This document shows, piece after piece, positions 5,617 through 36,253 of a DNA stretch of 64,000 bases. The stretch's first letter is position 1; each line of letters starts with the position of its first letter. The notes under the pieces were generated by a model. That model was given only the letters and a program-made list of their open reading frames with translations. It had not been told where the DNA came from and did not search any database. Origin of the DNA: Candidatus Uhrbacteria bacterium. Its GTDB lineage: Bacteria; Patescibacteriota; Patescibacteriia; UBA9934; GWF2-40-263. A program made the position numbers and the translations under genes. The stretch spans positions 286,247-350,246 of the forward strand of contig JAHFIQ010000001.1 in NCBI GenBank assembly GCA_023246355.1. The letters are read 5' to 3'.

Positions 5617-5678
5617 ACCCAGTGATATCCTCCAAGATGACCACTGGGCAGGCGAAATCGAGCACAGACCCCCTCTGA

Positions 5679-7621: not shown

Positions 7622-7750
7622 AGTGCATCCATCGTAGATGGAAATGAAAAAGGATACGGCATGAACAGATAGCAAAAGTGGACAAGTGAAAGACCTGCCG
7701 AAAAATCAAGACAAAATGACTTTGGCCTTTGTCCAAATCTGTTCGACGAT

Positions 7751-16033: not shown

Positions 16034-16090
16034 AGTGGGTCTATCCTAGCAAATACAAAAGACGAGAGCCATTGCCCTCGTCTTTTTTTC

Positions 16091-17257: not shown

Positions 17258-17270
17258 AGAGATTTAGTTG

Positions 17271-18407: not shown

Positions 18408-18650
18408 AATTAGAAATGGGATTTAAGAAGAAGAAAATCAGAAGTGATAGTAAGGGCTGTGCATGGCGGGGATAAGTTAAATTTCGTTTTTGTTTCTGCC
18501 TTGATTCTTACGATCGTTTTGTGGATGGATGAGAGGATGAACCAAGGAGAGGACAGGGGAAGAATTTTTAAAGAAGGTTCCATCAAGTTTCATCCACATG
18601 TTTTTGCAGACGGTTATGAACTCGTCATCCACCCGTTTACAAGCTGTGGA
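18408..18650. promoter_or_regulatory. probable oriC: DnaA-box cluster in the dnaA-dnaN spacer
   Basis: DnaA-box-like 9-mers are TTGTGGATG (18529-18537), TCATCCACA (18590-18598), TCATCCACC (18626-18634) and TGTGGATTA (18646-18654). An AT-richer stretch lies at 18408-18470. This is the classical dnaA-dnaN position. Confidence 0.5.
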
Positions 18651-20048
18651 TTAGAGCGCGTATAACTTCTGCTTAATCAGTTCCAAATCATGTTGAAGCT
18701 TTTCATCTTCGAGCAAACAGCCACTAATTTTATCGTAGGCATGCATGGCCGTGGTGTGGTCGCGACCACCCAACTCTGACCCAATGGATGGATAACTCGA
18801 CTTCATTTCCTCCCGCATGAGGTACATGACAATCTGGCGTGGGAATGCCAGACGCTTTTGGCGGCTTTTTCCAAGGAGATCATCAAGGTGGACATCAAAG
18901 TAAAGGGCAACCGTATGGATGAGCTGTTTTGGGGTAACGCTTTTGCGACTAGAGATGGGTTGGAAACTGGTGAGGATGGGTTTGACGGTTTCAATGGAAG
19001 GCTTGGCGTTCTTAAACTGATGAAAGGCGATGATTTTGTTGAGCGCACCCTCAAGCTCTCGGACATTTGTCTGTACGACCGTTGCGACATGATGGAGGAT
19101 TTCACGCTCAAGCTGGTAGGCTTTTTCTCGGCACTTGGTTTCCAAAATCGCCACGCGTGTTTCAAAGTCAGGGGAACCAACATCTGCCAACATGCCGCAT
19201 TCAAATCGAGAAATAAGGCGGTCTTCCAGACCTGAAATGGCTTTTGGCGGTCGGTCAGAGGAAAGGACGATCTGTCGATTGTTCTGGTGGAGTTGATTGA
19301 ACGTGTGGAAAAATTCTTCCTGGGTTTCTTCTTTTCCACCTAGAAATTGAATGTCGTCGATTAACAGAACGTCCACGGTGCGGTAACGATTTTTGAATTC
19401 GACCATCCGGTTTGAGCGTAGGGCGCCAATAAAATCGTTTGTAAAGCGCTCGCTGGTCACGTAAAGGATTTTGAGCTGTGGGTTCTTGCGCAAGAGCTCG
19501 TTTCCAATCGCTTGAAGCAGGTGGGTTTTGCCCAGTCCTACCCCACCGTAAATGTAGAGCGGGTTGTAGACGCCGCCCGGTTGGTTTGAGACGGCTTGAG
19601 AAGCAGCGTGAGCGAGTTCATTTTGTTTTCCAACAATGAATGTTTCGAAACAATACTTCCCGTTTAATGAAAATTCACCGGTACGCACTTCTTGTTGCGG
19701 TTGCGGTTGGTGAGCGGGTTGAAAGTGGGTGTGCATTTCAGGGGTTGGTGCGCGAGTGATCTCTTTTTCAAAAAGAGGGATGTCACGAGGGGTTGTTGGT
19801 CTGTTTTCGACACGGTAACTAAGCTGTTTGATCACTCCGTTGCTGTGTTCCTGCAAGGATCGCATAATTTCACGGGCGTATTTTTTTTCAAGCCAGGCTT
19901 TGGTGAACATGTTTGGGACACCAATGATAACCGCATGTGAATCGACTTCTGAAATAAAAGTGCTTTTAAACCAAGTAGTAAAGTTTGCTTTACTTAAGCC
20001 CAATTCGAGCTCACCTAGCACAGCTTGCCAAAGGTCATTGGTGTTCAT
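18651..20048 (-). CDS. dnaA: chromosomal replication initiator protein DnaA
   Basis: 465 aa. AAA+ Walker A GGVGLGKTHLL, sensor/box motifs, and a C-terminal DNA-binding domain (...DHTTAMHAYDKI). Confidence 0.95.
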   Translation of the reverse strand: MNTNDLWQAVLGELELGLSKANFTTWFKSTFISEVDSHAVIIGVPNMFTKAWLEKKYAREIMRSLQEHSNGVIKQLSYRVENRPTTPRDIPLFEKEITRAPTPEMHTHFQPAHQPQPQQEVRTGEFSLNGKYCFETFIVGKQNELAHAASQAVSNQPGGVYNPLYIYGGVGLGKTHLLQAIGNELLRKNPQLKILYVTSERFTNDFIGALRSNRMVEFKNRYRTVDVLLIDDIQFLGGKEETQEEFFHTFNQLHQNNRQIVLSSDRPPKAISGLEDRLISRFECGMLADVGSPDFETRVAILETKCREKAYQLEREILHHVATVVQTNVRELEGALNKIIAFHQFKNAKPSIETVKPILTSFQPISSRKSVTPKQLIHTVALYFDVHLDDLLGKSRQKRLAFPRQIVMYLMREEMKSSYPSIGSELGGRDHTTAMHAYDKISGCLLEDEKLQHDLELIKQKLYAL

Positions 20049-20204
20049 AGATCAAAAGAGTGGTTCCTCCTAAAAGTTACGCTGCGCCTCAGTGTAGAAC
20101 AGTTGTGTATAAGTGAGCAAGCGGCTAAAAACTGTGCATAGCAGTTGATGGATTGTGGATACTATGTTAGTATCTCAGTACTCACATTTGACTTTAATTT
20201 TGGT
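20049..20204. promoter_or_regulatory. dnaA/rpmH divergent promoter region with DnaA boxes
   Basis: TGTGTATAA at 20104-20112 and TGTGGATAC at 20154-20162, each 1 mismatch from TGTGGATAA. Confidence 0.45.
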
Positions 20205-20354
20205 ATGCCAAAGCGAACGTATCAACCCAAAAAACGTCAGCGATCAAAAGTCCATGGCTTTCGGGCTCGCATGAAGAGTTCCACTGGACGAGATGTTCTC
20301 AAGCGACGTCGTGCTCGAGGACGCAAACGACTGACCGTCAAAACAAGCAAGTAG
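20205..20354 (+). CDS. rpmH: 50S ribosomal protein L34
   Basis: [49 protein letters not shown], a near-universal L34 sequence. ATG at 20205. Confidence 0.95.
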
Positions 20355-20363
20355 ACAAAGGCT

Positions 20364-20702
20364 ATGCTCCCAGAGCTCCACAGACTACGACACGAAAAAG
20401 ATATGAAAACGCTCTTTGCCCGTGGCAGGAGCGTTTTTGGGTCGCTGGTTGGTATGAAAATGTGTCCAAATGGTCTTCCTGTCTCACGATTTGCCGTGGT
20501 CGTTGGTGTGAAAACAGCCAAAAGCGCTGTTGATCGTAATCGGATCAAACGCCGTGTCCGCTCGATTGTTCAGACACATATTTCACGGGTGAAAGGCGGT
20601 TTTGATGTCTGTCTTTTGCCAAGAAAAGAGGCTTTAACAGCCAAACATAAAGACGTAGAAGCCTCTCTCATGGCTAGTTTCAAGAAAGGCAAGCTTTTAT
20701 GA
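20364..20702 (+). CDS. rnpA: ribonuclease P protein component
   Basis: 112 aa, LPELHRLRHEKDMKTLFARGRS...RNRIKRRVRSIV, a basic RnpA pattern, directly after rpmH. Confidence 0.9.
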   Translation: MLPELHRLRHEKDMKTLFARGRSVFGSLVGMKMCPNGLPVSRFAVVVGVKTAKSAVDRNRIKRRVRSIVQTHISRVKGGFDVCLLPRKEALTAKHKDVEASLMASFKKGKLL

Positions 20703-20950
20703 AATGGGTTTTGATGGGAATTATTCGTGGGTATCAAATGACCCTCTCTCCTGACCATGGGCTCATTAAACCCTTATTTCCTGAAGGTTTTTGCCGTTTT
20801 TATCCAAGTTGTTCGGAGTACGGGCATGATTCGATCGGCCGTTTCGGAGCTGGAAAAGGCCTGGTTCTCACGTTTTTGCGTATTTTGAGGTGCAATCCGT
20901 TCTCCTTGGGTGGTACAGACCCGGTTCCTACCAAAAAACACCAGGTTTAG
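20699..20950 (+). CDS. yidD: membrane protein insertion efficiency factor YidD
   Basis: 83 aa, YQMTLSPDHG...CRFYPSCSEYGHDSIGRFGAGKGLVLTFLRILRCNPFSLGGTDPVP, the canonical YidD sequence. Overlaps rnpA by 4 nt. Confidence 0.9.
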   Translation: MKWVLMGIIRGYQMTLSPDHGLIKPLFPEGFCRFYPSCSEYGHDSIGRFGAGKGLVLTFLRILRCNPFSLGGTDPVPTKKHQV

Positions 20951-21183
20951 TTGGTGTTTTTTACTATTTTTATCTGTTTGATCTTGGTTGTAAGACCTCT
21001 CACGACCTTGATCTGACTTTTCGCGATTTTTAGCTCCTGTGCAAGCAGTTCAATCACAGCTTTGTTCGCCTTTCCTTGTTCAGGGGCAGCTGTTACAGAG
21101 ATTTTTAGTGTATCCTCGTCGATCCATTCAACGGTATTTTTTCTAGCATGGGGTTTGACGTGGATTGTGAGGAACATACGCAT
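20947..21183 (-). CDS. DUF167 (YggU) family protein
   Basis: 78 aa, IHVKPHARKNTVEWIDEDTLKISVTAAPEQGKANKAVIELLAQELKIAKSQIKVVRGLTTKIK matches the UPF0235/YggU pattern. Confidence 0.7.
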   Translation of the reverse strand: MRMFLTIHVKPHARKNTVEWIDEDTLKISVTAAPEQGKANKAVIELLAQELKIAKSQIKVVRGLTTKIKQIKIVKNTN

Positions 21184-22473
21184 TTACTTTATCATGATTC
21201 CTCGCAGCAGCTCGATGACCTTGCGGTTTTTAAGGATCTGCTCCATGTAATCACGGTATTCAGGTGAGTAGACGCGTTCTTTTGTTTGCTTGTCTTCATG
21301 TTCTCCCGCGATCCGGTCGAGTTCTTCATCCAGTTCGCTGTCTTTGACCTCGATGTTTTCTTGTTTGGCGACCCCGCGGATGGCAATAGCCACCTTGATC
21401 CGCATCAGGGCTTGCGGAGTGAAATCAAGTTTTAATTCCGCAAGCGTCTTTTTCAAGTTCTTCACGTAGGTATCGAATTCGAGTCCTTGGGACTCAACCG
21501 AATGCTTGAGCTCGCCGATCATTTTATTGATTTCTTCATTTAAGAGTAGATCTGGAATTTCATCAAATTGAGATTTGTTTGCAAGAAGCTCAAGCATCTC
21601 TTTTTCTTCTTTGACGCGGGCCTCCTGTTGTTTTTCTGTGAGCAAATTCTTTTGAATCGCGGATTTCATCTCCTCAAACGTTTTCATGCCAAGTGACTGA
21701 GCAAATGTATCGTCCATGTTTGGAGGTTCAAGGCGGTACAACTCTTTTACGACCACATCAAATTCAACATCTTTTCCAGCCAAAAATTTTTGCGGATGCT
21801 CCGTTGGAAAAGGCAGGGTAAATGTTTTTTCCTCACCTTCTTTAAGTCCAATGAGTTCTTTTTTAAAGCCCGGGATGTAGTAATCTTCGGCTAAGTACAC
21901 CCCATGATTGGGTGACTGCCCACCTTCCACAGGAACGCCATCGCGCTTCATGTTCATGGAAATGACAACCTTGTCTTTGTCCCCTGCGACGTCTGTTTGG
22001 GGCGCACGGACTTCCTTGGTCTGCATGCGAGTCAGATCACGGATGGCAAGTTCAATTTCTTTTTCCGTGACTTCGGTTGTTTTTGCCGTGACAGAGAGTT
22101 TGTGAAAATCAGCGAGTGATTTAACCTCTGGCATGCGGGTGACAATCGCCGTGAAGACAATGTCATTTCCTGGTGCGAGCTTTTCTACGTCAATTTTTGG
22201 AGAACCAACCGTATCGAGATTTTGCGAGAGGATCGCGGCAACGTAAGACTTGCGCACCAGAGGCTCCAAGGCCTCTTCGAGGATTTTCATTTCCCCGACG
22301 CGCGCTTTCACAATTTCATACCCGGCATGACCAGGACGGAATCCGGCTATTTGCGTTTGTGTGGAAATGCGTTTGGCCGCTTCCTCAAGATACGGCCAGG
22401 CTTCTTCCTGAGTGATGGTGAACGTCAGTTTGATTTGGTTTTTTTCAAGCGACTCGGTTTTGATGTCAGGCAT
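21184..22473 (-). CDS. tig: trigger factor (ribosome-associated PPIase chaperone)
   Basis: 429 aa. N-terminal ribosome-binding region (GFRPGHAGYEIV is the GFRxGxxP signature), a central FKBP-like domain, and a C-terminal arm. Confidence 0.9.
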   Translation of the reverse strand: MPDIKTESLEKNQIKLTFTITQEEAWPYLEEAAKRISTQTQIAGFRPGHAGYEIVKARVGEMKILEEALEPLVRKSYVAAILSQNLDTVGSPKIDVEKLAPGNDIVFTAIVTRMPEVKSLADFHKLSVTAKTTEVTEKEIELAIRDLTRMQTKEVRAPQTDVAGDKDKVVISMNMKRDGVPVEGGQSPNHGVYLAEDYYIPGFKKELIGLKEGEEKTFTLPFPTEHPQKFLAGKDVEFDVVVKELYRLEPPNMDDTFAQSLGMKTFEEMKSAIQKNLLTEKQQEARVKEEKEMLELLANKSQFDEIPDLLLNEEINKMIGELKHSVESQGLEFDTYVKNLKKTLAELKLDFTPQALMRIKVAIAIRGVAKQENIEVKDSELDEELDRIAGEHEDKQTKERVYSPEYRDYMEQILKNRKVIELLRGIMIK

Positions 22474-22480
22474 AGGACAA

Positions 22481-22510
22481 GGTTTTAGGTTGTAGGGAGT
22501 AGGTTGTAGG
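22481..22510 (-). repeat. 30-nt purine-free (on mRNA) leader motif, copy 1: mRNA sense CCUACAACCUACUCCCUACAACCUAAAACC, 7 nt upstream of the tig AUG
   Basis: Plus strand GGTTTTAGGTTGTAGGGAGTAGGTTGTAGG. It contains the internal 11-mer direct repeat TAGGTTGTAGG twice. A second copy, identical except for one base, lies at 47394-47423. Confidence 0.6.
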
Positions 22511-22597
22511 TGAAAGCTTAAGAAAATCGTCAGGAGCTTAACGATTCAGATGAAAATTGTCAAAGGAAAATCCGAGCGAGTGGCTCGGATGCGTTGG

Positions 22598-23071
22598 CTA
22601 GTGGGCTTGGGCGTTCACGTGAGCTTCGCCGACTTCTCTTGCAATGTGGGCAGCGTAGGAAGCGACTTGTTGGCGCGAGGCGCCGAAGTGCTGCTGCAAG
22701 GCCGTAGAGATTTCATGCCAGTGAGGAGTCTTGGCAAGCCGGGGGTACCACTCATGGATGAACGCACGGCCTACCGTTTGGAAGGCGGTTCTGTCCATGG
22801 CGCTCACCTGAGCCTTGAGCTCGTTGAGCTGCGCTCTCTTGATCGAACGGCCTACCGGAAGCGGCACGACGCCTTTTCTGCGACGCGGTTTCGTTGTCAC
22901 CGCGTCTGCGGGCTCCGTGGTCGGCGCAGGGGATGCTTCAGCAGTTGACTGTGCGAGTTCGGAGATGATGGCTGTTTGCTCCGTTTCCAGAGCTTGAAGT
23001 CGAGCGATGAGACACACACGCTCTTGTCCGATGTTTTTCAGACGATCGAGCTGATCCTTTCGCGTAGGCAT
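22598..23071 (-). CDS. hypothetical protein (island gene 1; coiled-coil N-terminus, possible HTH C-terminus)
   Basis: 157 aa, no recognisable family. GC-rich codon usage. Confidence 0.5.
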   Translation of the reverse strand: MPTRKDQLDRLKNIGQERVCLIARLQALETEQTAIISELAQSTAEASPAPTTEPADAVTTKPRRRKGVVPLPVGRSIKRAQLNELKAQVSAMDRTAFQTVGRAFIHEWYPRLAKTPHWHEISTALQQHFGASRQQVASYAAHIAREVGEAHVNAQAH

Positions 23072-23088
23072 GGGGACTCCGTGAGTTC

Positions 23089-24123
23089 CTACCTTGGGAG
23101 GTAAGTTGAGACTCTGCCAGAGGGAGAGACAAATGTCAATGGACTGCGGCTGTAGAGCTGCCAGAGTTGTTCGGCGACCACGGTGATGGCGATAGGAGAA
23201 CTCAGTCTTCCCAAGGTGAGAATCCAGGTGGACATCCGATTGTTGCCGCCTGAGCGATAGAGCACTCGTTCAATCGTGAGCGGAAACAGTGGCGTCCGAC
23301 ATTCACTCAACAAGGGTCTGAGATGCGGTTCGTCAAAAAAACGGAACGATCTTTCTTTCGCAAGTGACTGGATGCGTGAAGCGGTCTGGTACATGTCTCC
23401 CAATATTTTTGAGAGATCACCATGGACAGCGACATCGAGTGCGCCGCTTCCCTCTGTCGGACTCGTGAAGAGGGTGAGGCCGATCAGCACCCGCCACAGG
23501 ATTCCGAAATCTCGACAGAACTGTGCGTGAGGAAGGACTTCTTCATGGGAGTTGCCGCGAAGGTAGGGACGCAGCTGATCGAACAGCCCATCAAGGCTTG
23601 TTCGCACACGTCCTTCCAAGATGGAATCAAAGGCGTTTGCAAACACGACTCCTGATTCGATGGATTCGGGATCCATTCCGGCAAAGGTGGTCATGCACAG
23701 GAGTCCTCCTCTGCTTCCCGGGAAGACACGGAAGAGTCGGATGATCTCGTCCGCGCAGGTATTCACCTGACCCTCGAAGTCAGCATTCGCGATCGAAAGT
23801 CTTGGTCCATCTGCGTGCGCGTGGTGATCGATCCACTGTGCCAGGGTTCCGTGGAAGATATGTCTGTCGCCAGACATTTTTTCGATGATCTTTTGGTGGC
23901 GTTCCACTGGATGAGTGATGACGCGGCGTTCAAGATAACGCGGACCTTCCAGATCCTGGACGCCTGGAAAGTAGACAACGTGTAGCGGTTCGCGATGTCT
24001 GCCTATGAGCATTCGGTCGATCGCGGCAAAATACCACGACCGAACCCAGTTCTTGGCTGGATTGTCGTAGTCTTGCACGAATCCTCCGATCCCAGTTGGG
24101 ACAGAGGATTTCATCAGAATCAT
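23089..24123 (-). CDS. hypothetical protein (island gene 2)
   Basis: 344 aa ORF in the GC-rich segment. No motif I can name; His-rich stretch HGTLAQWIDHHAHADG. Confidence 0.5.
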   Translation of the reverse strand: MILMKSSVPTGIGGFVQDYDNPAKNWVRSWYFAAIDRMLIGRHREPLHVVYFPGVQDLEGPRYLERRVITHPVERHQKIIEKMSGDRHIFHGTLAQWIDHHAHADGPRLSIANADFEGQVNTCADEIIRLFRVFPGSRGGLLCMTTFAGMDPESIESGVVFANAFDSILEGRVRTSLDGLFDQLRPYLRGNSHEEVLPHAQFCRDFGILWRVLIGLTLFTSPTEGSGALDVAVHGDLSKILGDMYQTASRIQSLAKERSFRFFDEPHLRPLLSECRTPLFPLTIERVLYRSGGNNRMSTWILTLGRLSSPIAITVVAEQLWQLYSRSPLTFVSPSGRVSTYLPR

Positions 24124-24223
24124 GATAGAAAGTCAATTGTCTGTGCTTGACAGAGATGGTATGTTGCCCTAGGGTAGTCGGTCTTGCACGCGGTCGTGTA
24201 AGAACAACTTCAGGGAGGTTTCC

Positions 24224-25834
24224 ATGGGCAGTCGCAACCGTCGATTGTTGGACAGGCTCGGAAGGCAGGACGCATCGTTCAAGCTGGGAGATGCGCTCCC
24301 GAAAGCTGTGAAGGAGCAACTCGGCGTTGATCCAAAGGCACCAACAGGAAAGGTAACGCCCCCATCTTTGACGGTAGGGCATGCCGCTCGAGTCCTTTCG
24401 ATCATCGAACAGGGCGATCCGCGCATGTTGGCAGCTCACTTGCTTTCAGGCGACGTTGCTGTACACGACATTCCACCTCGACTCATGCAAGCCGTGCTTG
24501 GCTGCGTGAGGCGGCATCACAAGGCTGTCACCGATCGCGACGACGAAACGATTCGGCAGCAGCGCGAAGCCCTGGAAGCACTCAACAGAGCAGCACGTGA
24601 ACGCGACGAGTCTCGTGCTTCGACTGAGTCTGACGTTGCTCGTCAGCGCCGTACAGCGCAGGAGATGGGACGTCAAGTGGGCGATCTTCATCGCGATCTC
24701 GAGCAAGCACGTCTGAAGATTGGAGAGTTGGAGCAATCGTTGCGCACATCGCAATCCGAAGCCTCTGATCTCAGAGCAGACCTCGCAGCTGCAAAAGAAG
24801 AACAGCTCGGCGACACCGAGGGCGCGATTTTCCGCCGCTTTCTGGATCTCGTGAATGTGCAGGTGGCACAGTGGCTCACGGATCGAGAAGGGCTCTTTCG
24901 AAAAGCGGAGTCTCTGTGCTCACGTTTGGAAGAGAGGGCTGGTCAGGCCGACGATCTGCTGTTGGAAGTGAAAGCGTGTGTGGAGGATGCCGAGGCCGCA
25001 CAGGTGGAGAGAGTCTTTGAGGGAGATGAGAGAGATTGGATCGCCTTCATCGACAAGGTTGAGCAGATGCGAAGGTTCCTGAGTGAACACTCCGCGATCA
25101 TCCAGGAAGTTCAGCGTCTGAGTCAGCAACGATCTGAATGTACTGATGCCTACGAAGGGCTCGATCGCAAAGGCAAGGAACTTACATTCCAGATTCACTC
25201 CGTGGTCGAGGCCTTTTCCTTGATCGGCGTGGACATCTTCGCTCGCGCAGGGTTGAATCCAGATCTGCTTGATTCCCTGGGAGCATCCGATCGGGTGGTG
25301 AAGCTCATGATGCAGGCGATCCCTGCTCAAGAGTTGTCAGAGGATTGGACACAGCGTATAGAAGCGCTCCAATCGCACATCTTGGTGGCCAAGCCAAAGA
25401 GGGCAGGCAAGAAAGAGCCTGCGCCCGAGCCCGCCCAAGTTCAGTTCTTTCCAGGCAGGATCTTCATGGTCGAGCCTGAACGCGAAGTGGAGAGGCTCGT
25501 GGGGATTCTTCTTCACGAGTTGCATGCGGCTGGATTTACCAACGCGTTGTTTCCAGGTGAGATCGCCTTGCTTCTCATGCGCTCAGGTCTCACAAACCTT
25601 GCGCGTGAGCCAATGACTAGTGAGGTGACGGTGGCTTGCCAAGCGCTCATTGGTCGGGGGCTCATCAGTCGTCATCCACGTTTTATGGAGGACGTCCAGA
25701 TCACAGGAAAGGCATTTGCTGCGCGTGATGTCTTCACGGCTCAGTACGCTCGAGTCGAGTTGGCTCAAGTGGGAGGTCGGCATGGAGAGAAACTGTGCGA
25801 GAAGTTGAGGAGGGTCATCCCAACCAAGGCGTAA
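24224..25834 (+). CDS. hypothetical coiled-coil protein (island gene 3)
   Basis: 536 aa, a long E/R/Q-rich predicted coiled-coil centre (residues about 100-330), no Walker motif. Confidence 0.5.
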   Translation: MGSRNRRLLDRLGRQDASFKLGDALPKAVKEQLGVDPKAPTGKVTPPSLTVGHAARVLSIIEQGDPRMLAAHLLSGDVAVHDIPPRLMQAVLGCVRRHHKAVTDRDDETIRQQREALEALNRAARERDESRASTESDVARQRRTAQEMGRQVGDLHRDLEQARLKIGELEQSLRTSQSEASDLRADLAAAKEEQLGDTEGAIFRRFLDLVNVQVAQWLTDREGLFRKAESLCSRLEERAGQADDLLLEVKACVEDAEAAQVERVFEGDERDWIAFIDKVEQMRRFLSEHSAIIQEVQRLSQQRSECTDAYEGLDRKGKELTFQIHSVVEAFSLIGVDIFARAGLNPDLLDSLGASDRVVKLMMQAIPAQELSEDWTQRIEALQSHILVAKPKRAGKKEPAPEPAQVQFFPGRIFMVEPEREVERLVGILLHELHAAGFTNALFPGEIALLLMRSGLTNLAREPMTSEVTVACQALIGRGLISRHPRFMEDVQITGKAFAARDVFTAQYARVELAQVGGRHGEKLCEKLRRVIPTKA

Positions 25835-25924
25835 TACGAGTGGAAGGGTCACGCACACCCTTCCTTTTATTTTTGTGTCAAAAAGAAAAGTCGTCGAGTT
25901 TTCGTCGACGACCGTGCGTTGTTT

Positions 25925-27955
25925 CTACGTCTGGTGGATGCGAGCCATGATGGTGTCGCGCTTGCGCAGCACATCCATCATGTTCACGGGAACGCGATTT
26001 CCTTCCTGCTTCGCGGCTCGCTCACACAGCATGATCGCCATGTGAGTGACCACCTCGTGATTGACCAGCAGGTCGAGCGACCCGGCTCGGTCTTTCTTGG
26101 CTGCCTGGGCTTCAGGTGCCGCGAAGTTGAACCAGATCGTGCACCTGGTGTCTCCAGCCGGGACAAACATCGCGAGTTTGGTGCGCTGATTTTTCTGCTC
26201 AGCAAACGGGAGAGACGTGATCGTGAAGGTGACACCGTCGACGACGAGCACCTTTTTCAAGACGGCCGTTCCAGGTCCGTCGCCGGTACGAGGCTTGGCC
26301 GTTCGCACGCTCAAGCGTGCTTCAGCTTTACTTCCGTCGCTGGCCTTGCACGTAATCGTGTAGTTGCCAGGTTCCATGGGCGCGGTGACTTCTGCACTGC
26401 GCGTGTCATCACTCATCCGGATTCGGCCTTTCTCCGTGGTCGTCCAAGTGAGGCCAGACTTGCCGTCGTCGTTGACCACACGCACTGTCCCGGTCTCACC
26501 TGGCTCCAGAACCAACTCACGCGGAGAGAGCGTGAAGGCGAGTTCCTGGTCGAGTCGGATTTCGCAGACAGCGCTTGGGGTGATCTCCTCCCCTTCAGAT
26601 GCGTGTCCAACGAGTTTCATCTTGTACCGGCGACCTTCTTCCTTCCCAGCCCGATAGGTGATCTGGGTGGGACCGGTGAGAGTCGCGGTCGCTTTTGCGC
26701 CCGAGAGCCACTTGTCATCCACCAGGATCGAGCCACCGGACTGCGTAGCATCGAGCTCGCAGATGTCTTCTGCCCCCGCGTTCAAGACCTGAAAGACGAA
26801 GGTTGTCCCGCATACGAGCGTTACTCGTGCCGGCTTGAATGCCAAGGCGGTCGTGGGCGTGCGAGGCGGCGGGACATTGACCTGCGTCGTCTCTCCCACC
26901 TTCTCGATGAGCCTCTGGACCACGCGCTCAATGACTTCGTCAGACGCACCTTCTACTTGCGTGTCCAGGCGAGCCCTACGGCGGATTTCCGGAAGCAGGG
27001 TGCTGTGCACGTGTTGGACCACAAGCTTGAAGCTCGGATCCTTGAATAGCAGGGGCTTGAAGAAGCGGCGGGTATGCTCTCCTTCGAAGTTTTTCCATGC
27101 ATGCACACGAATCATGAACCAGACGTTGGGGTGCAGGAGCTCTGGCGCCAGACCAGCCTCCAGACGCCCCAGTTGGTCCAAGAGTTCCGAGTGGCTGCAC
27201 ACATGCGCGCCCCAGGTTCCCCAGGAACGGTCCTGGTCTTTCACCTGGTCGTCGGCAAATCCGGCGATGATCTCCACTTGCCCCACACCCGGGACTTCAT
27301 CCTGGGCACGGTAGAACTCCCCTTTGGGAAAGTCGATGCGCGGCTTTTCGCCGTTGATCGTGATCATGTCCAGCTGCCAGGGCGAGAGGACACGTGCGAT
27401 GTTGCGCAGGACCTCGCCAGGCAGCACGCGGATGGCGGACTTGCCTTGCCAAGGTTTGGTGAGGCGAATCACCGTGCCGGTTCCCTTCACGCGGGCACCG
27501 GAGGTGGACTTGGGGATCTTGTTGGTCTTGATGCCGCCGCTTGCGCCCGTCTGCGAAGCTTTCCAAGCCTCGTCGTGGGAGTAGCTCAGGTGATGGCAAT
27601 CGGGGTCCTCCGACCAAGCCGTCCAGACATCCATGTGGTCAAAAGCGAGCCAGAGGGCCGTGTGACCTGTGCCGTTTTCCCCAATGGTTGAATCATCGCC
27701 TTGCTTGGACGATTCGGCCATGCCGATGAACTCAGGCCATACCTGCCGGCGCATGCCCATGCCATTGTCTTCGAACTGGAGGAATTCTCCATGCCGGTCG
27801 ATGGTGATGTCGATCTTGGTTGCTCGCGCATCCACGGCGTTCGTGATCCCTTGACCGACGATCCCTGAGGGAGTGATGGCCACACCCAGGCCCATCTTGC
27901 GAAACGATGAAGCGCCAAGTTTTCCACGGACAAGTTCGTTGGTGGCAGAAGCCAT
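25925..27955 (-). CDS. GHKL-superfamily ATPase (HATPase_c_3 / MORC-Hsp90-like N-terminal domain) with C-terminal Ig-like repeats (island gene 4)
   Basis: 676 aa. Bergerat-fold motifs: N-box ITNAVDARATKIDITID, G1 box FEDNGMGM, G2 box IGENGTGHTALW. The C-terminal 250 aa contain beta-rich repeats (GETGTVRVVNDDGKSGLTW...; GNYTITCKASDGSKAEARLSV). The long opposite-strand ORF is the usual high-GC artefact. Confidence 0.65.
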   Translation of the reverse strand: MASATNELVRGKLGASSFRKMGLGVAITPSGIVGQGITNAVDARATKIDITIDRHGEFLQFEDNGMGMRRQVWPEFIGMAESSKQGDDSTIGENGTGHTALWLAFDHMDVWTAWSEDPDCHHLSYSHDEAWKASQTGASGGIKTNKIPKSTSGARVKGTGTVIRLTKPWQGKSAIRVLPGEVLRNIARVLSPWQLDMITINGEKPRIDFPKGEFYRAQDEVPGVGQVEIIAGFADDQVKDQDRSWGTWGAHVCSHSELLDQLGRLEAGLAPELLHPNVWFMIRVHAWKNFEGEHTRRFFKPLLFKDPSFKLVVQHVHSTLLPEIRRRARLDTQVEGASDEVIERVVQRLIEKVGETTQVNVPPPRTPTTALAFKPARVTLVCGTTFVFQVLNAGAEDICELDATQSGGSILVDDKWLSGAKATATLTGPTQITYRAGKEEGRRYKMKLVGHASEGEEITPSAVCEIRLDQELAFTLSPRELVLEPGETGTVRVVNDDGKSGLTWTTTEKGRIRMSDDTRSAEVTAPMEPGNYTITCKASDGSKAEARLSVRTAKPRTGDGPGTAVLKKVLVVDGVTFTITSLPFAEQKNQRTKLAMFVPAGDTRCTIWFNFAAPEAQAAKKDRAGSLDLLVNHEVVTHMAIMLCERAAKQEGNRVPVNMMDVLRKRDTIMARIHQT

Positions 27956-28075
27956 GATGGCTGTCTCCTGTGAAGAGGTGATACCTCACAAGCGCGAAAT
28001 CGCTTATGAAGTTCCATCAGAGGTTGTCCTTTGACGACCACTGGTGGAATAGCGAGAGGAGCTCTCTCGCAGCCG

Positions 28076-29359
28076 TTAGGATTTGATGTCGTCCAGATCC
28101 CCTCCACCCAATCCTGTTGCCGTGACTCTCATGTCCAGGAACATGCTTGGCAAGTCTTCGTCTGCCACATCCATATGCCTGATGTGAATGGACATTTCAT
28201 CAAAGGCGTGACGCAGACGTCGCAGGACTGCCCGCTTGTCGTTATGTTCCATCGAGTTGATTTGCGCCAGACGCCTTGTGAGTTCACCGATGAGATTCGC
28301 AGTGTCATCAACCTCGTCGAGGCTGAACACAGCTTCACGTTTGAACGAAGCGGCCGTGAGCACAAACCGCATGCCGCTGACCACCTCACCCGGATCATCC
28401 GTCTTTCCTGCGGGTGGTGAAGAGCGTCGTGCACGAAGTTCCGCGATGATCCCTTCCAGTCCACGAGTGAGAATCTCTTCTATCGTGGAAGGTTCCTCAT
28501 TCGGTTTTTCGACTGGTTGTACGGGGGTTCGAATTCCTTGATGCGGCATCACCGTGGTAGTCACGGTCGCAGAAGTTCTCTCTGCGCTCAACCATTCGGG
28601 GAATGCGATTTGGATCGCACGCAGAAGGGTTTCGAACTTTTCACGCGAGGGTCGCTGGCCCTTTCGCCAGTCGATCAGGAGCGTTGCGCTGAAGACCTGT
28701 TCGCCAAGGCCGCCGTTGAGCTTCTTGGCAATGTGATCGACGCGTTCATGTGGGACCTGCTTGGTCATCCACGTTTTGAACGCGTTGTCGCCTACGAGCT
28801 CAGGGATGCGTTCACACCCTCGGCCGAAGACGTTCCACTGCCCTTCCATGTAGAAGAGGGTGTCGCTTCCCCAGGTTTGTCTTTCACCTCCACTGCGAGC
28901 GTCTTCTGTGCAGAAACGGATGATCGCCACGATGTTCTCGAAGCCCGGGAGACTCTTTGCATCTTTGTTACAGAACGAGTCAAGCTCGGTCCCATCAAAG
29001 AACATGCGAGAGAGTTGTTTGTCCCCGCCGATTCTCTCGATGTAGGGACGCAGCAGGCCAACAACGTCCTGCCGTGTTTTGACCTCTGGGAACCAGTCCC
29101 TTGTGGGGTCCACGGCCTTCTTGGCCATGTCCACCCACGTTGTTCCAACGTCGATGTCCACGGCAGTGAGCTTTCTTTGGATCCTTGGCGATTGGAGGGA
29201 GAACCGAACCTTTTTGCTCAGCTCGCCTTCCGCCTGGATCATGCTGTAGAGGTTGTCCAGTCCTGCAATTCGCAGGGCTGATGTGCGCTTGGGTTCCGGT
29301 TGCGCGGCTACCCAGGCTTCCAGTTGTTCGAGGACTGTACGTCCTTGGGGAGCAGGCAT
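28076..29359 (-). CDS. hypothetical protein (island gene 5), immediately downstream of and co-oriented with... divergent from gene 6
   Basis: I placed the start at MPAPQGRTVLEQLEAW, preceded by AAGGAGATCCA-ATG (good SD). 427 aa with no recognisable domain. The ORF-track N-terminal 75 aa extension lacks an SD and overlaps the divergent gene. Confidence 0.5.
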   Translation of the reverse strand: MPAPQGRTVLEQLEAWVAAQPEPKRTSALRIAGLDNLYSMIQAEGELSKKVRFSLQSPRIQRKLTAVDIDVGTTWVDMAKKAVDPTRDWFPEVKTRQDVVGLLRPYIERIGGDKQLSRMFFDGTELDSFCNKDAKSLPGFENIVAIIRFCTEDARSGGERQTWGSDTLFYMEGQWNVFGRGCERIPELVGDNAFKTWMTKQVPHERVDHIAKKLNGGLGEQVFSATLLIDWRKGQRPSREKFETLLRAIQIAFPEWLSAERTSATVTTTVMPHQGIRTPVQPVEKPNEEPSTIEEILTRGLEGIIAELRARRSSPPAGKTDDPGEVVSGMRFVLTAASFKREAVFSLDEVDDTANLIGELTRRLAQINSMEHNDKRAVLRRLRHAFDEMSIHIRHMDVADEDLPSMFLDMRVTATGLGGGDLDDIKS

Positions 29360-29521
29360 TGGATCTCCTTGGGTCTTTTTCCTCAGGTTTTGGTCTGAAT
29401 GAGGACAGGTCAGAGTAAAAGAAACAGTTCTGAATGTCAAGATTAGCCGCTTGACGGGATCACGGCAAGGTGATTCACTGTTCCCCTTGCGACGAGCAAG
29501 AAACCCCTTCAGGAGTCGAGC

Positions 29522-30694
29522 ATGTCTTCTCCCCCTTTGGCAGAGCCCGCGTCTGTTGATCCCGCCAAGCCCATTGATACCCACCCATGCTACTTCTGGT
29601 GCTGGGTCGAGGCTGTTCGACGATACTGGGATTCCAAGCGTGGATCCGATACGCCGTTGAATGCCAGGGTAGATTTCTACCCGATCATCTTTCGCTACTA
29701 CAAACCAAGGGTCGACACGAAGAAACCGAACCCTTCTGTCTATCTGTCGTACATGAAGAAGGCGGGGATGATTCGCAGGTTCGGAGCAGACGCTGGTGAC
29801 TCAGGTCGTGGAAGGGATACATTCTACGTTCCCGAGACAGAGATCACGCTGCGCGTTGGCGGGAAGGTGGTCTACACGCCAAGAGATCTTGATGCCCTGC
29901 TGGAGGGTGATGAGCGGTTCCAGCCTCCCAGTGAGGTGGTGGAGCCGGCATCTGAGGGCGAGCCGCCTGATGCTGATGCAGGTGACGATGGCGGCGGGGC
30001 AGCAGATGAGGCCGATCCTCCCGCGGCTGAGCCAGCGGTGAAGGAGAAAAAGCGTCGCAACAGGCAGAGGAGTCCGGAGCAGAATGCCTTGGTCGGCAAG
30101 CTTGTGAAAGTCCTGTGGGCAGCGGCAGAGCCAACGGACGATCCAGCCTGGCGCGTGATCGCGAAATCCGCGGCCAGAGACCATGCGGTGCGAGAGTGCG
30201 GACATGTTCTGCACTACACCACGCTCTTTCGACTCGGTTTCCTGAAGTCAGGGGCAGATCACGAAACGTGTCTCATCACGGATCCCAACGCAGGTTTCCG
30301 TGAGGCGCTGGCCGCTCCGAAGCGGGGACAGAATCCTGAACAGCCGGCGGAGACTTCCGTGTGTGGCTCTTCCAGTCTGTCCATCGAGCAGATCAGTGCC
30401 AGGATCACTGAACGCGAGGCAAGCTTCAGCACACAGGAGCTGGAAGATGAGCGCGCCGTCGTGCTGCGGGATGTCACGGCAAAACGTGCAGAGCTCGCCG
30501 CGATTGATGAGACACGTCTGCGTCTGCGTGAAGAGCTGCGAGGGCTTGAGACTTCTAGTGAGGCGCTGGCCGCCCAAATCGAGACTCGTATGATGCAGCG
30601 CCAGCAGGATCCCCTGCTTCTGGATCTGAATTGGGCGCGCGACAATTTCGAGCGACTCCAAAGGGTGCTGGCAGATTCTGTACCCAAGAGTTAA
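29522..30694 (+). CDS. hypothetical protein with acidic low-complexity linker and C-terminal coiled coil (island gene 6)
   Basis: 390 aa. The N-terminal about 110 aa form a basic/aromatic, possibly DNA-binding domain (PCYFWCWVEAVRRYWDSKRG...). D/E/G-rich linker, KKRRNRQR, and a coiled-coil C-terminus. Confidence 0.5.
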   Translation: MSSPPLAEPASVDPAKPIDTHPCYFWCWVEAVRRYWDSKRGSDTPLNARVDFYPIIFRYYKPRVDTKKPNPSVYLSYMKKAGMIRRFGADAGDSGRGRDTFYVPETEITLRVGGKVVYTPRDLDALLEGDERFQPPSEVVEPASEGEPPDADAGDDGGGAADEADPPAAEPAVKEKKRRNRQRSPEQNALVGKLVKVLWAAAEPTDDPAWRVIAKSAARDHAVRECGHVLHYTTLFRLGFLKSGADHETCLITDPNAGFREALAAPKRGQNPEQPAETSVCGSSSLSIEQISARITEREASFSTQELEDERAVVLRDVTAKRAELAAIDETRLRLREELRGLETSSEALAAQIETRMMQRQQDPLLLDLNWARDNFERLQRVLADSVPKS

Positions 30695-30738
30695 GACACG
30701 ACCCGTTCGCTCTCTGCGACCGGGTTTTCAAATTCAAA

Positions 30739-30767
30739 ACACCCCAGCAGACCGGGGTGTTTTTTTG
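30739..30767. terminator. bidirectional rho-independent terminator (ACACCCC-agcagac-CGGGGTGT + T7) between island gene 6 and hppA
   Basis: 8 bp G/C stem with TTTTTTT downstream on plus. On the minus strand the stem is followed by TTTTGAATTT. Confidence 0.75.
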
Positions 30768-30768
30768 T

Positions 30769-32745
30769 TTAGACGATCAAGGCAACGATGAGCAGAGCGA
30801 CGATGTTCAAAATTTTGATCATCGGGTTTAGGGCTGGGCCGGCAGTGTCTTTGTACGGGTCGCCCACCGTGTCGCCTGTGACAGCGGCTTTGTGTGCATT
30901 GCTTCCCTTGCCGCCGAAGTGACCAGCTTCAATATATTTTTTGGCATTGTCCCAGGCGCCGCCGCCAGTGGTCATCGAGATGGCGACGAACAGTCCGGTG
31001 ATAATGGAACCGATGAGCAAACCGCCCAAGGCTTCAGCTCCCAGTCCAAATCCTACAACGATCGGTGCAAGCACGGCCAAGAGGGACGGGGCGATCATGT
31101 ACTTGATCGCACGAGTCGTGACGATGTCGACAGCCTTGCCGTACTCAGGTTTGCCTGTGCCATCCATGATGCCTGGAATTTCACGAAACTGTCGTCGGAC
31201 TTCTTCTACGACTGCGCCAGCGGCTTTTCCAACCGCCTCCATGGCCATAGCGCCGAACAAATAGCTCACAAGTCCTCCCAAGAAAAGGCCCGCGATTACA
31301 TGTGGATCAACCAAGTTGAAAATGATGTGCGTGCCAGTGGCTTCGATCGTGTGAACGTAGTCGCCAAACAGTACGAGTGTGGCAAGTCCTGCTGAACCAA
31401 TGGCGTAGGCCTTCGTCACAGCTTTTGTGGTGTTGCCAACCGCGTCCAGGGGATCGGTAATGGCGCGGACTTCCTCTGGCAGGTCGGCCATTTCAGCAAT
31501 GCCTCCTGCGTTGTCGGTGATCGGACCATAGGCATCGATGGCGACAATGATTCCGGTGAGCGACAACATTGCCACAGCCGCAATCGCAATGCCGTAGAGA
31601 CCAGCAAGGTTGTAGGCGATGAGGATTCCAAGGACAATGGTGAGAACAGGCAGAGCTGTGGCTTTCATGGAAAGCGCAATGCCTGCGATGATGTTGGTCC
31701 CGTGACCGGACTGTGAAGCCTCAGCGAGTTTTTGCACGGGTTTGTATTCCGTGGCTGTGTAGTATTCGGTGATCATGATGAGGAGCGCTGTGATGACGAG
31801 TCCAAGCACGCCACAGAAGAAGAGTTCCTGGCTGTTCTCAAACATGAAAAGATTTGTCACAAACCAGAAGCCAATGCCTGCAAAGATTCCTGCGGCGGCG
31901 AGGCCTTTGTAGAGCGCACCCATGATGTTTTTTGTGGTGCCAAGTTTGATGAAGAAGGTTCCCAGAATAGACGCAATGATGGCGACGGCACCAAGGGCAA
32001 GTGGATACAAGACAAGACCTTCGTCACTCGAGAGAAGACTTCCCAAGACCATGGTGGCCACCAGGGTCACTGCGTATGTTTCAAAAAGATCAGCGGCCAT
32101 GCCAGCGCAGTCGCCGACGTTGTCGCCGACGTTATCCGCAATCACGGCTGGGTTGCGTGGATCGTCTTCGGGAATATTGGCTTCTGTTTTTCCAACGAGG
32201 TCTGCACCGACATCAGCAGCCTTTGTGAAGATACCCCCGCCAAGTCGCGCGAATACAGAGATCAGTGAGCCACCAAATCCAAGTCCAATGAGGGCACCCA
32301 CGTCTTGGGTTACAAAGAAAAATCCAGCAACACCCAACAGCGCAAGTCCCACCACAAGAAGTCCTGTGACCGTTCCGCCTTTGACCGCGACGTCCAGTGC
32401 TTCAGCCAGTCCTTTTTTTGCTGCCTCGGTGGTACGGACATTCGCACGCACAGAAACGCTCATGCCGACAAATCCAGCCACGCCAGAGAGAACAGCTCCT
32501 ACGAGAAATCCAACGGCGAGCGTCCAATCGAGCACGAGGCCCAGCAGGACAAAAATAATCACGCCAATCACGGCGATCACTTTGTACTGACGAGCGAGAT
32601 AGGCGTTTGCCCCTTCTTGAATAGCAAGGGCAATGCCTTTCATTTTTCCTTCCCCGGCAGGCTGCTTCAAAATCCATTGAGTCAGAACAGCTCCCCAGAG
32701 AATCGCGAGAATTCCGGCCGCGATGGCGTAGAGTATAATGGGCAT
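30769..32745 (-). CDS. hppA: membrane-bound proton/sodium-translocating pyrophosphatase
   Basis: 658 aa, about 16 TM. Conserved H+-PPase motifs GGG(I/L)[24 protein letters not shown] and [13 protein letters not shown]. Confidence 0.95.
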
Positions 32746-35803: not shown

Positions 35804-36253
35804 TCAAACCAAGAAAACATTCACCCACTTGGTTAACCCAAGTTCTTCAACCAAAGACTGCATCAATTCACTTACATCGTTCTTCGTTGTCCAGACACTT
35901 CGTTGTGCCATCGTAAATCCAGCTTTTTTCAAAAAGTTTCTCAGTTTGTTTCGAAGATGTCTTACGTCCTCAGGGATATCAAAACTCACGATGGTCGTGC
36001 GACCGTCAGGATGCTCCCGTTTCACTAACAGGATTTTCTCCCGAGTGAGTCTTGCCTGTCCTTTGCTGCTTAGTTTCAGTTCTGCGCCATAGCTGGTTTC
36101 ATAAATATCAGAACACCCCTCTTCCAAGAGTTGAATTTGGCGTTTGAGTTGTTCTACATACGCTGTTCGTCTCCAGCTATCAGGTGCAACTTGGTTGAAA
36201 TGTCGCTGAGCATTGTGGAGCTTTTTTGTTGTCGGAATATGCATGTTATCCAT
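35804..36253 (-). CDS. hypothetical protein, translationally coupled to comM; C-terminal half has a Cas2/VapD-like beta-alpha-beta pattern (weak)
   Basis: 149 aa. TIVSFDIPEDVRHLRNKLRNFLKKAGFTMAQRSVWT resembles the Cas2 core (v.sYDv...rrrkl.k.L..yG.rvQ.SVf). Overlaps the comM stop by 8 nt. No CRISPR array anywhere in the window. Confidence 0.35.
   Translation of the reverse strand: MDNMHIPTTKKLHNAQRHFNQVAPDSWRRTAYVEQLKRQIQLLEEGCSDIYETSYGAELKLSSKGQARLTREKILLVKREHPDGRTTIVSFDIPEDVRHLRNKLRNFLKKAGFTMAQRSVWTTKNDVSELMQSLVEELGLTKWVNVFLV

Follow-up and report, generated by a model that had tools for sequence, protein, structure and literature searches.

The association of GHKL ATPases with methylases in restriction-modification contexts is an established theme, and the MORC proteins have a specific S5 motif, GhXhhpXXRhl (Iyer et al. 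2008, PMC2292703). The earlier note on the DNA studied here, a window of 64,000 nucleotides (the whole stretch that was analysed) from a Candidatus Uhrbacteria contig, drew attention to a gene that it read as encoding a MORC/Hsp90-type GHKL ATPase fused to Ig-like beta repeats. Its host, an ultra-small bacterium, belongs to the Patescibacteria (CPR), which account for a large share of bacterial diversity and, to our knowledge, carry few recognisable defence or chromatin systems. We find that the gene product, GHKL-Ig, represents a new and rare family, conserved over its full length, in which GHKL, transducer, two Ig-like domains and a C-terminal domain are combined. The family has an obligatory HTH partner, and coiled-coil and methyltransferase-fold partners in addition.

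A conserved GHKL pocket with glutamine at the general-base position

The GHKL-Ig open reading frame (Table 1) is a real gene; it has an ATG start and is called identically on 13 public contigs. The product contains the Bergerat motifs that had been read from the letters alone in the HATPase_c_3 order: an N-box, ITNAVDARATKIDITID (aa 37-53, with N39 and D42), a G1 motif, FEDNGMGM (aa 61-68, D63xGxG67), and a G2 motif, IGENGTGHTALW (aa 91-102, G92xxGxG97). It also has a G3-like motif, GTGTVIRL (aa 158-165, T159-G160-T161). The Pfam profile HATPase_c_3 (PF13589) reaches 38.5 bits, well above its gathering cut-off of 25, and it also matches 53 of the 54 family members that were aligned. Among 54 full-length relatives N39, D42, G65, G67 and G92 are invariant, which places the GHKL motifs far beyond chance, and D63, G97 and G160 are 96-98% conserved.

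Four positions ahead of the Mg-binding Asn the protein has Gln35, which stands opposite the catalytic Glu29 in an alignment to E. coli MutL. Gln is found here in all members of the window's subfamily whose sequence reaches this far (9 of 10; P0006 has no N-terminus), and this subfamily has no Glu at position 38 either. In the 54 wider relatives position 35 is Q in 39 (72%) and E in the other 15. To judge by these alignments, GHKL-Ig is a protein with a fully conserved ATP-binding pocket that is without the usual catalytic glutamate. The earlier note had not noticed the substitution. In the GHL and MORC clades hydrolysis depends on a general-base Glu, loss of hydrolysis on changing Glu to Gln is known from mutants of other GHKL families, and this is the very change that experimenters use to trap GHKL ATPases as an ATP-bound dimer.

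Domain layout and family assignment

GHKL-Ig is a GHKL ATPase of the HATPase_c_3/GHL type followed by a transducer-like domain and two Ig-like domains. In the structure search against MORC and Hsp90 that had been proposed as a check, the first ~400 aa matched the GHKL-plus-transducer modules of Top6B, MutL, SMCHD1, MORC and Hsp90 about equally. Long fold alignments were obtained to MORC2, MORC3, the MutL NTD and TRAP1 N+M, with the middle domain modelled at a pLDDT of only 35-65 and the two AF2 models being of moderate confidence overall (pLDDT 64 and 72). A candidate gamma-phosphate sensor in the middle domain is Arg296, which 69% of the wider family share. The MORC/Hsp90 label is supported in part: the protein is a GHKL ATPase with a transducer-like middle domain, and a regular-expression search found the MORC S5 signature neither in the window protein nor in any of 65 relatives.

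The HMM scan and motif alignment also dispose of more ordinary identities. That the protein is a sensor histidine kinase or a MutL paralogue is extremely improbable given its profile scores and architecture: it has no HisKA domain, no membrane or hydrophobic segment and a HATPase_c score of 19.9 bits against a cut-off of 26.4, and the NCBIfam MutL profiles reach 15-20 bits, over aa 28-71 only, against cut-offs of 180-840, with no MutL_C. Hsp90/HtpG was rejected on an HtpG profile score of 12.8 bits against a cut-off of 371; over MutL and HtpG together the NCBIfam scores span 12-22 bits. The earlier note had correctly set the kinases and MutL aside.

The Ig-like repeats had been placed in the last 250 aa; there are indeed two homologous Ig-like domains, but they occupy aa ~368-556 and are followed by a predicted mixed alpha/beta domain of ~120 aa. 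The two repeats align to each other with an hhalign probability of 99.5% (E 4e-22), and their fold matches are to LigA, SbsC and phage Ig-like domains; in Pfam they give sporadic sub-threshold matches (Big_2, PKD, Ig_7) in a few members. No signal peptide or membrane segment was found in any protein of the module described below, and a surface-exposed role for the Ig-like domains was rejected on this ground. The C-terminal ~120 aa gave no recognised fold and are a candidate dimerisation domain. They are weakly conserved across the wider family, the conserved positions being I572, N610 and an NxxHP motif whose His is replaced by Ala in the window's subfamily.

Table 1. Positions of the module, its domains, its flanks and its putative control elements in the window
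Feature	Position	Strand	Description
Inserted block	22474..30768	.	8 kb between trigger factor and H+-PPase
Trigger factor	21184-22473	-	flank of block
157-aa gene	22598..23071	-	downstream of methyltransferase-fold gene; N-terminal coiled coil, Pro-rich linker, small conserved helical C-terminal domain
Methyltransferase-fold gene	23089..24078	-	329 aa, GTG start; alternative ATG at 24123 gives 344 aa
Second box GTCAAG-N8-ATTGAC	24132..24151	.	divergent region between methyltransferase operon and gene C
Gene C	24224..25834	+	536 aa; long coiled coil and conserved ~110-aa C-terminal domain; convergent with GHKL gene
GHKL-Ig gene	25925..27955	-	676 aa; HATPase_c_3 E 1.4e-9; ten homologues of 58-100% identity
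C-terminal alpha/beta domain, aa 557-676	25928..26287	-	predicted secondary structure
Ig-like domain 2, aa 471-556	26288..26545	-	structure prediction, fold matches, internal repeat; Trp504 invariant in family
Ig-like domain 1, aa ~368-470	26546..26854	-	structure prediction, fold matches, internal repeat
Transducer-like (S5-type) middle domain, aa ~171-360	26876..27445	-	fold matches
GHKL (Bergerat) ATP-binding domain, aa 1-170	27446..27955	-	HMM, motifs, fold matches
Gene A	28076..29359	-	427 aa; immediately upstream of GHKL gene; C-terminal ~80-aa conserved helical domain
Palindrome GTCAAG-N8-CTTGAC	29436..29455	.	between gene A and 390-aa gene (divergent); overlaps TTGACA box
390-aa gene	29522..30694	+	conserved ~125-aa N-terminal domain, acidic low-complexity linker, C-terminal coiled coil; divergent from gene A
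H+-PPase	30769-32745	-	flank of block

The GHKL-Ig family is rare and was not found in GTDB species genomes

The close subfamily consists of the ten homologues in Table 1, and the wider family adds about 60 more distant full-length clusters of 630-720 aa, 54 of which were aligned. Only 36 clusters with E<=1e-10 were found among 1.84 billion representatives. When the close alignment was used as the query, no relative appeared in the genomes of GTDB species or on viral contigs, and the single match in JGI metagenomes was to a contig already known; when homologues were sought with the wide profile, the close subfamily alone was recovered. The literature on Patescibacteria GHKL proteins, on bacterial MORC and on GHKL plus methyltransferase defence yielded no description of the family. 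GHKL-Ig and its module partners are not represented as a known family or system in Pfam, PADLOC, PHROGs or the searchable literature; the earlier note, too, could not place the fusion in a described system.

A six-gene module accompanies GHKL-Ig

Inspection of homologues and their neighbourhoods, another of the proposed checks, revealed a conserved module whose complete copies all have one identical set of six genes. These occur at one site in L001, L003 and L004, and at a different site and on a different contig in L011, where the module adjoins rpsF-ssb-rpsR. Gene A lies directly upstream of the GHKL gene in 11 of 11 distinct loci. Distant members of the gene A family carry a Cro/C1-type HTH (HTH_26 at 22.2 bits with a cut-off of 22, and weak HTH_3 matches). 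In the window there is no terminator between gene A and the GHKL gene and there is one after the GHKL gene; the two are apparently co-transcribed. Every contig that is long enough (all loci except L094) has a gene of 315-892 aa as the next one downstream of the GHKL gene. The window's gene C has homologues in L001/L002, L003, L007 and L011, the 157-aa gene in L003, L007 and L011, and the 390-aa gene in L001, L003, L007 and L011; the last two genes are each followed by a terminator, at 22590-22570 and 30736-30763, respectively.

Database searches with the six proteins were largely silent. PADLOC, PHROGs and NCBIfam gave nothing above cut-off, only coiled-coil noise and short MutL/sacsin N-box matches. 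In PADLOC-DB 2.0 four of the six, namely the methyltransferase-fold gene, the 390-aa gene, gene A and the GHKL gene itself, matched nothing. The weak matches of gene C, to LmuB, JetC and DndD in PADLOC and to SMC as well, were confined to coiled-coil segments, and the 157-aa gene gave a weak match to a CARF profile (E 0.004). Profile searches of the PDB with the gene A and methyltransferase-fold families returned nothing meaningful, and neither a nuclease nor a helicase was detected in the window's module. Pfam searches with 30 neighbour proteins from the distant loci found HTH_26/HTH_3 in relatives of gene A, one SNF2-methyltransferase fusion, which adjoins the L008 copy, and coiled-coil noise. 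Other copies of the module are adjoined by a MazE/PIN pair and a DNA methylase, and the L009 copy has a TrwB/TraG-like coupling protein as its neighbour.

A Trm1-like methyltransferase fold

The 329-aa protein, which was detected in 6 of the 11 distinct loci (gene A and the GHKL gene being present in all), has a Trm1-like class I methyltransferase fold; SAM binding and methyl transfer are putative activities. It has a Rossmann-like seven-strand fold with an invariant E59 after beta2 and a motif IV-like A-N98-x-D100-F-x-G after beta4. The acidic residue and the N-x-D-F-x-G are features that it has in common with Trm1 and other class I amino-methyltransferases, and we take the latter to resemble the D-x-D-P-F-G of Trm1 and the (D/N)PP(F/Y) of the amino-methyltransferases. 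It differs from those enzymes in its lack of detectable similarity to the methyltransferase sequences of Pfam and the PDB and in having a non-canonical glycine loop with no GxGxG. Because the closest folds are tRNA and rRNA enzymes (Trm1, RlmO/RlmI-type, TlyA and RsmD-like) and the canonical loop is missing, the protein may act on RNA or have no activity.

The module lies in an inserted block with candidate control elements

In other Patescibacteria (L036, L016) the flanking genes, for H+-PPase and trigger factor, are direct neighbours, and of the 80 PPase loci taken from GTDB species not one contains the block. GC3 is 0.59-0.72 in the block, whereas dnaA and trigger factor have 0.51 and the flanking PPase has 0.58. 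The block is an insertion, and horizontal acquisition is the best explanation for its presence in this Patescibacteria genome. Neither att-like flanking direct repeats, nor tRNA genes at the junctions, nor Rfam families inside the block were found. Its distance from dnaA is about 2.5 kb, and all close relatives keep it at this site. By PPase (88% and 88% identity) and LysM peptidase (67% and 66%), L003 and L007 are equally close to the window; identity to the window's GHKL protein is 59% in L003 and 31% in L007. At 59-65% identity the GHKL protein is not changing more quickly than trigger factor or RnpA; the DnaA proteins of the relatives are only 80% identical.

Two boxes of the form GTCAAG-N8-NTTGAC occur in the divergent intergenic regions of the block and nowhere else in the window, against 0.08 expected by chance. 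Variants with other spacings are found upstream of gene A in L001, L003, L007 and L094, and L007 has a palindrome at the place equivalent to the second box. The palindrome next to gene A is a candidate operator or promoter element.

Discussion

The reading that we favour, and hold to be a little short of an even bet, is that GHKL-Ig serves as the ATP-latched clamp of a methylation-linked conflict or defence module that acts on nucleic acid and is carried by Patescibacteria-type contigs. ATP binding would close the N-terminal domains of the GHKL-Ig dimer, as in MutL, GyrB, Hsp90 and MORC, and the closed state would be long-lived, making the protein a latch and not a motor, because Gln cannot activate the water. 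Gene A would deliver the dimer to DNA, a higher-order scaffold would be formed by the Ig-like domains together with the coiled-coil protein, and the methyltransferase-fold protein would mark self nucleic acid, with unmarked incoming DNA being clamped or occluded and not cut. The adjacency of PPase and trigger factor elsewhere, the absence of the block from the 80 PPase loci, its GC3, its rarity, the divergent GHKL protein of L007 and the MazE/PIN pair and DNA methylase next to other copies all speak for a conflict role. Against it stand the lack of an effector in the module, the lack of PADLOC matches, the RNA-enzyme folds and missing GxGxG loop of the methyltransferase-like protein, and the stable retention of the block at one site across relatives, a pattern of conservation that also fits a domesticated cellular function.

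Such a function could be that of a lineage-specific module for chromatin or chromosome organisation, in which the GHKL dimer, the coiled-coil protein and the HTH proteins compact or bridge the cell's own DNA and the methyltransferase has a regulatory, epigenetic part, defence not being involved. MORC and SMCHD1 do compact or bridge DNA, and both are among the best fold matches; the partners are rich in coiled coils and HTH domains, no nuclease or effector was found, the block keeps its place near dnaA in all close relatives and the GHKL protein evolves at a rate like that of moderately conserved housekeeping proteins. We nevertheless regard this as unlikely for a module that is very rare overall, is absent from nearly all related genomes, is inserted between genes that are adjacent elsewhere, has an atypical GC3, takes a far more diverged form at this locus in an equally related genome and occupies different genomic sites in other lineages.

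Foreign base composition and the presence of the module at several unrelated loci, in one case (L009) beside the coupling protein, would also suit the remnant or cargo of an integrated mobile element, where the genes would serve the replication, topology or maintenance of the element in a Topo VI/VIII-like or partition-like manner. This is very unlikely: Pfam, NCBIfam and PHROGs disclosed no integrase, relaxase, replication protein or Toprim/Spo11-like partner, the junctions are without direct repeats and tRNA, viral contigs hold no relative, and a complete block always has exactly the same six genes. An RNA-directed complex, with the Trm1-like enzyme modifying tRNA or rRNA and GHKL acting as its Hsp90-like chaperone or assembly factor, draws on the RNA enzymes that head the methyltransferase fold matches and on Hsp90/TRAP1 among those of the GHKL protein; the partners, however, include HTH DNA-binding proteins, the HtpG score is far below its cut-off, some copies dispense with the methyltransferase gene while gene A and the GHKL gene are always there, and an accessory, inserted and patchily distributed block would be unusual for RNA-modification genes. 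We consider such a complex hardly credible.

Returning to the ATP-latched clamp, one more specific form of it, distinctly doubtful as it stands, is nuclease-free, MORC-like silencing, in which a hydrolysis-deficient GHKL dimer, loaded by the HTH protein and scaffolded by the Ig-like domains and the coiled-coil protein, would latch on nucleic acid that has no Trm1-like mark and so occlude or compact foreign DNA. If silencing or exclusion without a nuclease were true, it would link the restriction-modification-associated GHKL proteins mechanistically to eukaryotic MORC/SMCHD1 silencing, and the module would be a prokaryotic counterpart of that epigenetic silencing. Most family members carry the trapping change from Glu to Gln, and the family thus offers a natural test of whether a GHKL clamp works as a latch.

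Relationship to known systems

On the reading favoured above, GHKL-Ig would be a variant of the GHKL-in-restriction-modification theme; it is not itself a MORC, MutL, Hsp90 or histidine kinase. Topoisomerase VI subunit B was rejected, since no Toprim or Spo11 match was seen among the neighbours in the loci scanned; a Top6A/Spo11 (Toprim plus 5Y-CAP) partner is missing from every locus, and the ATP-driven strand-passage cycle of that enzyme is incompatible with the change from Glu to Gln at the general base. Shedu type I-D, or paraMORC3 (VcSduA, PMC12137116), resembles GHKL-Ig in having an N-terminal GHKL domain that is proposed to control the C-terminal module of a defence protein, and in its dimeric clamp model. 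It is a single-gene system, whereas the window has a multi-gene module, and this identity too was rejected, since Pfam and PADLOC found no DUF4263 PD-(D/E)xK nuclease domain in the window protein.

The prokaryotic MORC/paraMORC proteins (PMC2292703) come closer in layout, with a HATPase_c_3-type GHKL domain, an S5/transducer-like domain and then a family-specific C-terminal extension, and closer in context, in that both are found in horizontally mobile multi-gene modules of patchy distribution that include a methyltransferase-type gene. Unlike them, the window protein has no MORC S5 signature, has Gln in place of the catalytic Glu and has an extension made up of two Ig-like domains and a C-terminal domain with no recognised fold; its partners are HTH and coiled-coil proteins, and the module has no SF2 helicase or endonuclease.

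The eukaryotic proteins MORC2/MORC3 and SMCHD1 are among the best structural matches of the window protein, at 14-17% sequence identity. GHKL-Ig is without their CW, hinge or other chromatin-reader domains, its coiled coil is on a separate protein and the catalytic Glu has been lost. It shares with them a GHKL plus transducer unit accompanied by coiled-coil elements, and they exemplify what may also be its manner of action: dimerisation on ATP and the clamping or compaction of DNA that is left uncut.

Identity and architecture of the GHKL protein

The GHKL gene opens with an ATG and encodes a 676-aa protein that is found, identical, among gene calls on 13 public contigs. The N-box, G1 and G2 Bergerat motifs quoted in the earlier note were all located in it, together with a G3-like segment, and residues 35-135 match Pfam HATPase_c_3 (E 1.4e-9; 38.5 bits, cut-off 25), as do 53 of the 54 aligned family members. 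That note had set the protein apart from histidine kinases and MutL, and the HMM scan refuted both readings: HATPase_c, the histidine-kinase model, fell under its Pfam cut-off and the Pfam scan found no HisKA domain, while the MutL profile, like that of HtpG, covers only the N-box (12-20 bits against cut-offs of 180-840).

An AlphaFold2 model of the protein, made with ten homologues as input (mean pLDDT 63.6), is of moderate confidence, as is that of the 329-aa methyltransferase-fold protein. Foldseek aligned its first ~400 residues to MORC2 (E 3e-8), TRAP1 N+M, the topoisomerase II ATPase, the MutL NTD and SMCHD1, with scores too close to favour a single family. As modelled, the protein carries the GHKL-plus-transducer module that characterises the gyrase/Hsp90/MutL/MORC group. 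The proposed MORC/Hsp90-type ATPase holds as to this module but is not supported as to MORC, whose specific S5 signature, as defined by Iyer et al. (PMC2292703), is absent from the protein and from 65 relatives. The predicted Ig-like beta repeats exist as two beta-sandwich domains, mutually homologous (hhalign probability 99.5%, E 4e-22), that match bacterial and phage Ig-like domains (LigA, SbsC, and N4 and SU10 virion proteins), with only sporadic, sub-threshold matches to Pfam Ig families; they lie at residues ~368-556, however, and the final ~120 residues are predicted to form instead a weakly conserved mixed alpha/beta domain without any match. The same genome shows the canonical extracellular use of such domains in a class A penicillin-binding protein (window 7751-10750; transglycosylase plus transpeptidase) with a C-terminal Big_7 Ig-like domain, whereas the GHKL-Ig protein is cytoplasmic.

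In an alignment with E. coli MutL, Gln35 falls at the position of the general base, Glu29. All members of the window's subfamily whose sequence reaches position 35 have Gln there; of 54 aligned full-length relatives, 39 have Gln and 15 have Glu. Across these 54, N39, D42, G65, G67 and G92 never vary, and conservation of D63, G97 and G160 is 96-98%. The pattern Q-x-x-E-N is seen in many distant members; in the window's subfamily position 38 is T, A or V, so there is no nearby Glu to substitute. MutL E29A, GyrB E42Q/A, Hsp90 E33A and Glu mutants of MORC/SMCHD1 keep ATP binding and dimerisation and hydrolyse poorly, and because of this we infer, by analogy, a long-lived ATP-bound state for the Gln35 protein. 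A candidate gamma-phosphate sensor is Arg296 of the middle domain, which 69% of the family share.

Only ten homologues (58-100% identity), one of them labelled 'Patescibacteria group bacterium', came out of a word-indexed search of 5.8 billion proteins. When 1.84 billion cluster representatives were searched with a profile, 174 matched at E<=1e-3, 36 of them at E<=1e-10; about 60 matches of 630-720 aa aligned over their full length and thus share the architecture. No relatives were found in GTDB contigs (one genome per species) or IMG/VR viral contigs, and JGI metagenomes held a single contig with one, already known.

A six-gene module near the replication origin

The GHKL gene belongs to a block of six genes, all listed in our gene-neighbourhood survey as without a Pfam family, between the genes for trigger factor and an H+-PPase (PPase). 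The PPase has its nearest relative in named genomes in Candidatus Uhrbacteria (73%), and one homologue of the methyltransferase-fold gene also bears that name. The origin neighbourhood lies inside the window (18651-22473: dnaA, rpmH, rnpA, yidD, a DUF167 gene and trigger factor; dnaN follows dnaA, 17271-18407), and the module is therefore ~2.5 kb from dnaA in this lineage. Neither a Walker A motif nor a membrane-like segment is present in any of the six proteins.

Features of the module and its proteins
Feature	Position	Strand	Location
157-aa gene	22598-23071	-	block
329-aa gene	23089-24078	-	block
536-aa gene	24224-25834	+	block
GHKL gene	25925-27955	-	block
427-aa gene (gene A)	28076-29359	-	block
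390-aa gene	29522-30694	+	block
Box	29436-29455		divergent intergenic region of block
Box	24132-24151		other divergent intergenic region of block
N-box	aa 37-53		GHKL protein
G1	aa 61-68		GHKL protein
G2	aa 91-102		GHKL protein
G3-like GTGTVIRL	aa 158-165		GHKL protein
P38	after beta1		329-aa methyltransferase-fold protein
E59	after beta2		329-aa methyltransferase-fold protein
N98-x-D100-F-x-G	after beta4		329-aa methyltransferase-fold protein

Terminator-like hairpins after the GHKL, 536-aa, 157-aa and 390-aa genes define the transcription units 427-GHKL, 536, 329-157 and 390. An inverted repeat, GTCAAG-N8-(C/A)TTGAC, occurs at exactly two sites in the 64-kb window, where chance would give 0.08 matches to the pattern, and overlaps a TTGACA hexamer. 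L001, L003, L007 and L094 have variants with shorter spacers upstream of gene A, and L007 has one in the second intergenic region too. The box may be a promoter/operator element linking the transcription units, a reading that is tentative because the spacer varies.

The six genes keep their order and site in L001, L003 and L004/5, a more divergent version occupies the same site in L007, and L011 has the complete set at an unrelated site adjoining rpsF-ssb-rpsR. In six distant loci (L008, L009, L010, L092, L093, L094) the GHKL gene is always directly preceded, often with an overlap, by a relative of gene A that is similar over at least the C-terminal ~80 residues; Cro/C1-type HTH models match distant gene A members. 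A convergent gene of 315-892 aa follows the GHKL gene wherever the contig continues that far; in L008-L010, the three loci scanned, it matches coiled coils.

Insertion of the module

In other Patescibacteria (L036, L016) trigger factor lies within ~100 bp after PPase, and none of the six genes was present at any of 80 PPase loci in GTDB genomes. GC3 is 0.72 in the GHKL gene and 0.59-0.63 in its five block neighbours, against 0.51 in dnaA and trigger factor. The block is inserted DNA. No integrase was detected, nor any flanking repeat or tRNA at the junctions. L003 and L007 are equally close to the window in PPase (88% and 88%), cupin (74% and 76%) and LysM peptidase (67% and 66%), but share 59% and 31% identity with it in the GHKL protein, and the other module proteins show the same kind of difference, which suggests that either the module was swapped in place at this site or two ancient versions segregate there.

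In L007 a 492-aa ORFan (5426-6904) also lies between PPase and the module, and a MazE/PIN toxin-antitoxin pair (15856-16425) adjoins the module's far side in place of trigger factor; in its behaviour the site resembles an insertion hotspot. An N6/N4 DNA methylase adjoins the L011 copy. Two genes from the L008 homologue is a 1036-aa SNF2-related helicase/class I methyltransferase fusion (16784-19894); modules of this kind may use it as an alternative effector or modification component. Beside the L009 homologue (4899-9292) lie a TrwB/TraG-like coupling protein, a DUF8128 protein and a sigma-70-like protein, a hint that this copy belongs to a conjugation or uptake setting.

Elsewhere in the window, a second GC-rich stretch (51093-53733; GC 0.60 at 52-54 kb), directly after tRNA-His (50942-51016) and followed by a TrmB-type regulator (53840-54829), holds ORFs without a Pfam family, of 425 aa (minus strand, GC3 0.62) and 331 aa (52463-53458, plus strand; hydrophobic, signal-like N-terminus). 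This stretch does not resemble the six-gene module and may be another inserted island. Beside a ComM-like Mg-chelatase gene (36246-37769, minus strand), a 146-aa protein (~35804-36244, minus strand; gene call of the identical contig L004) matches PaaX_M and, weakly, CRISPR_Cas2; its surroundings showed neither a CRISPR array nor another cas gene.

Interpretation

The evidence best supports an accessory module, acquired horizontally and acting on nucleic acid; past domain identity and gene linkage, we infer function throughout. We picture the GHKL-Ig protein as an ATP-latched dimeric clamp that its HTH partner would recruit to DNA, and the methyltransferase-fold protein may provide a self mark. 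The main rivals are a domesticated chromatin-like function, which is favoured by the stable retention of the module and by the missing effector, the maintenance of a mobile element, and an RNA-modification complex. The reading of an accessory module belongs to an established theme, that of GHKL ATPases in restriction-modification-type systems (PMC2292703). The helicase and nuclease of those systems are missing from the window's module.
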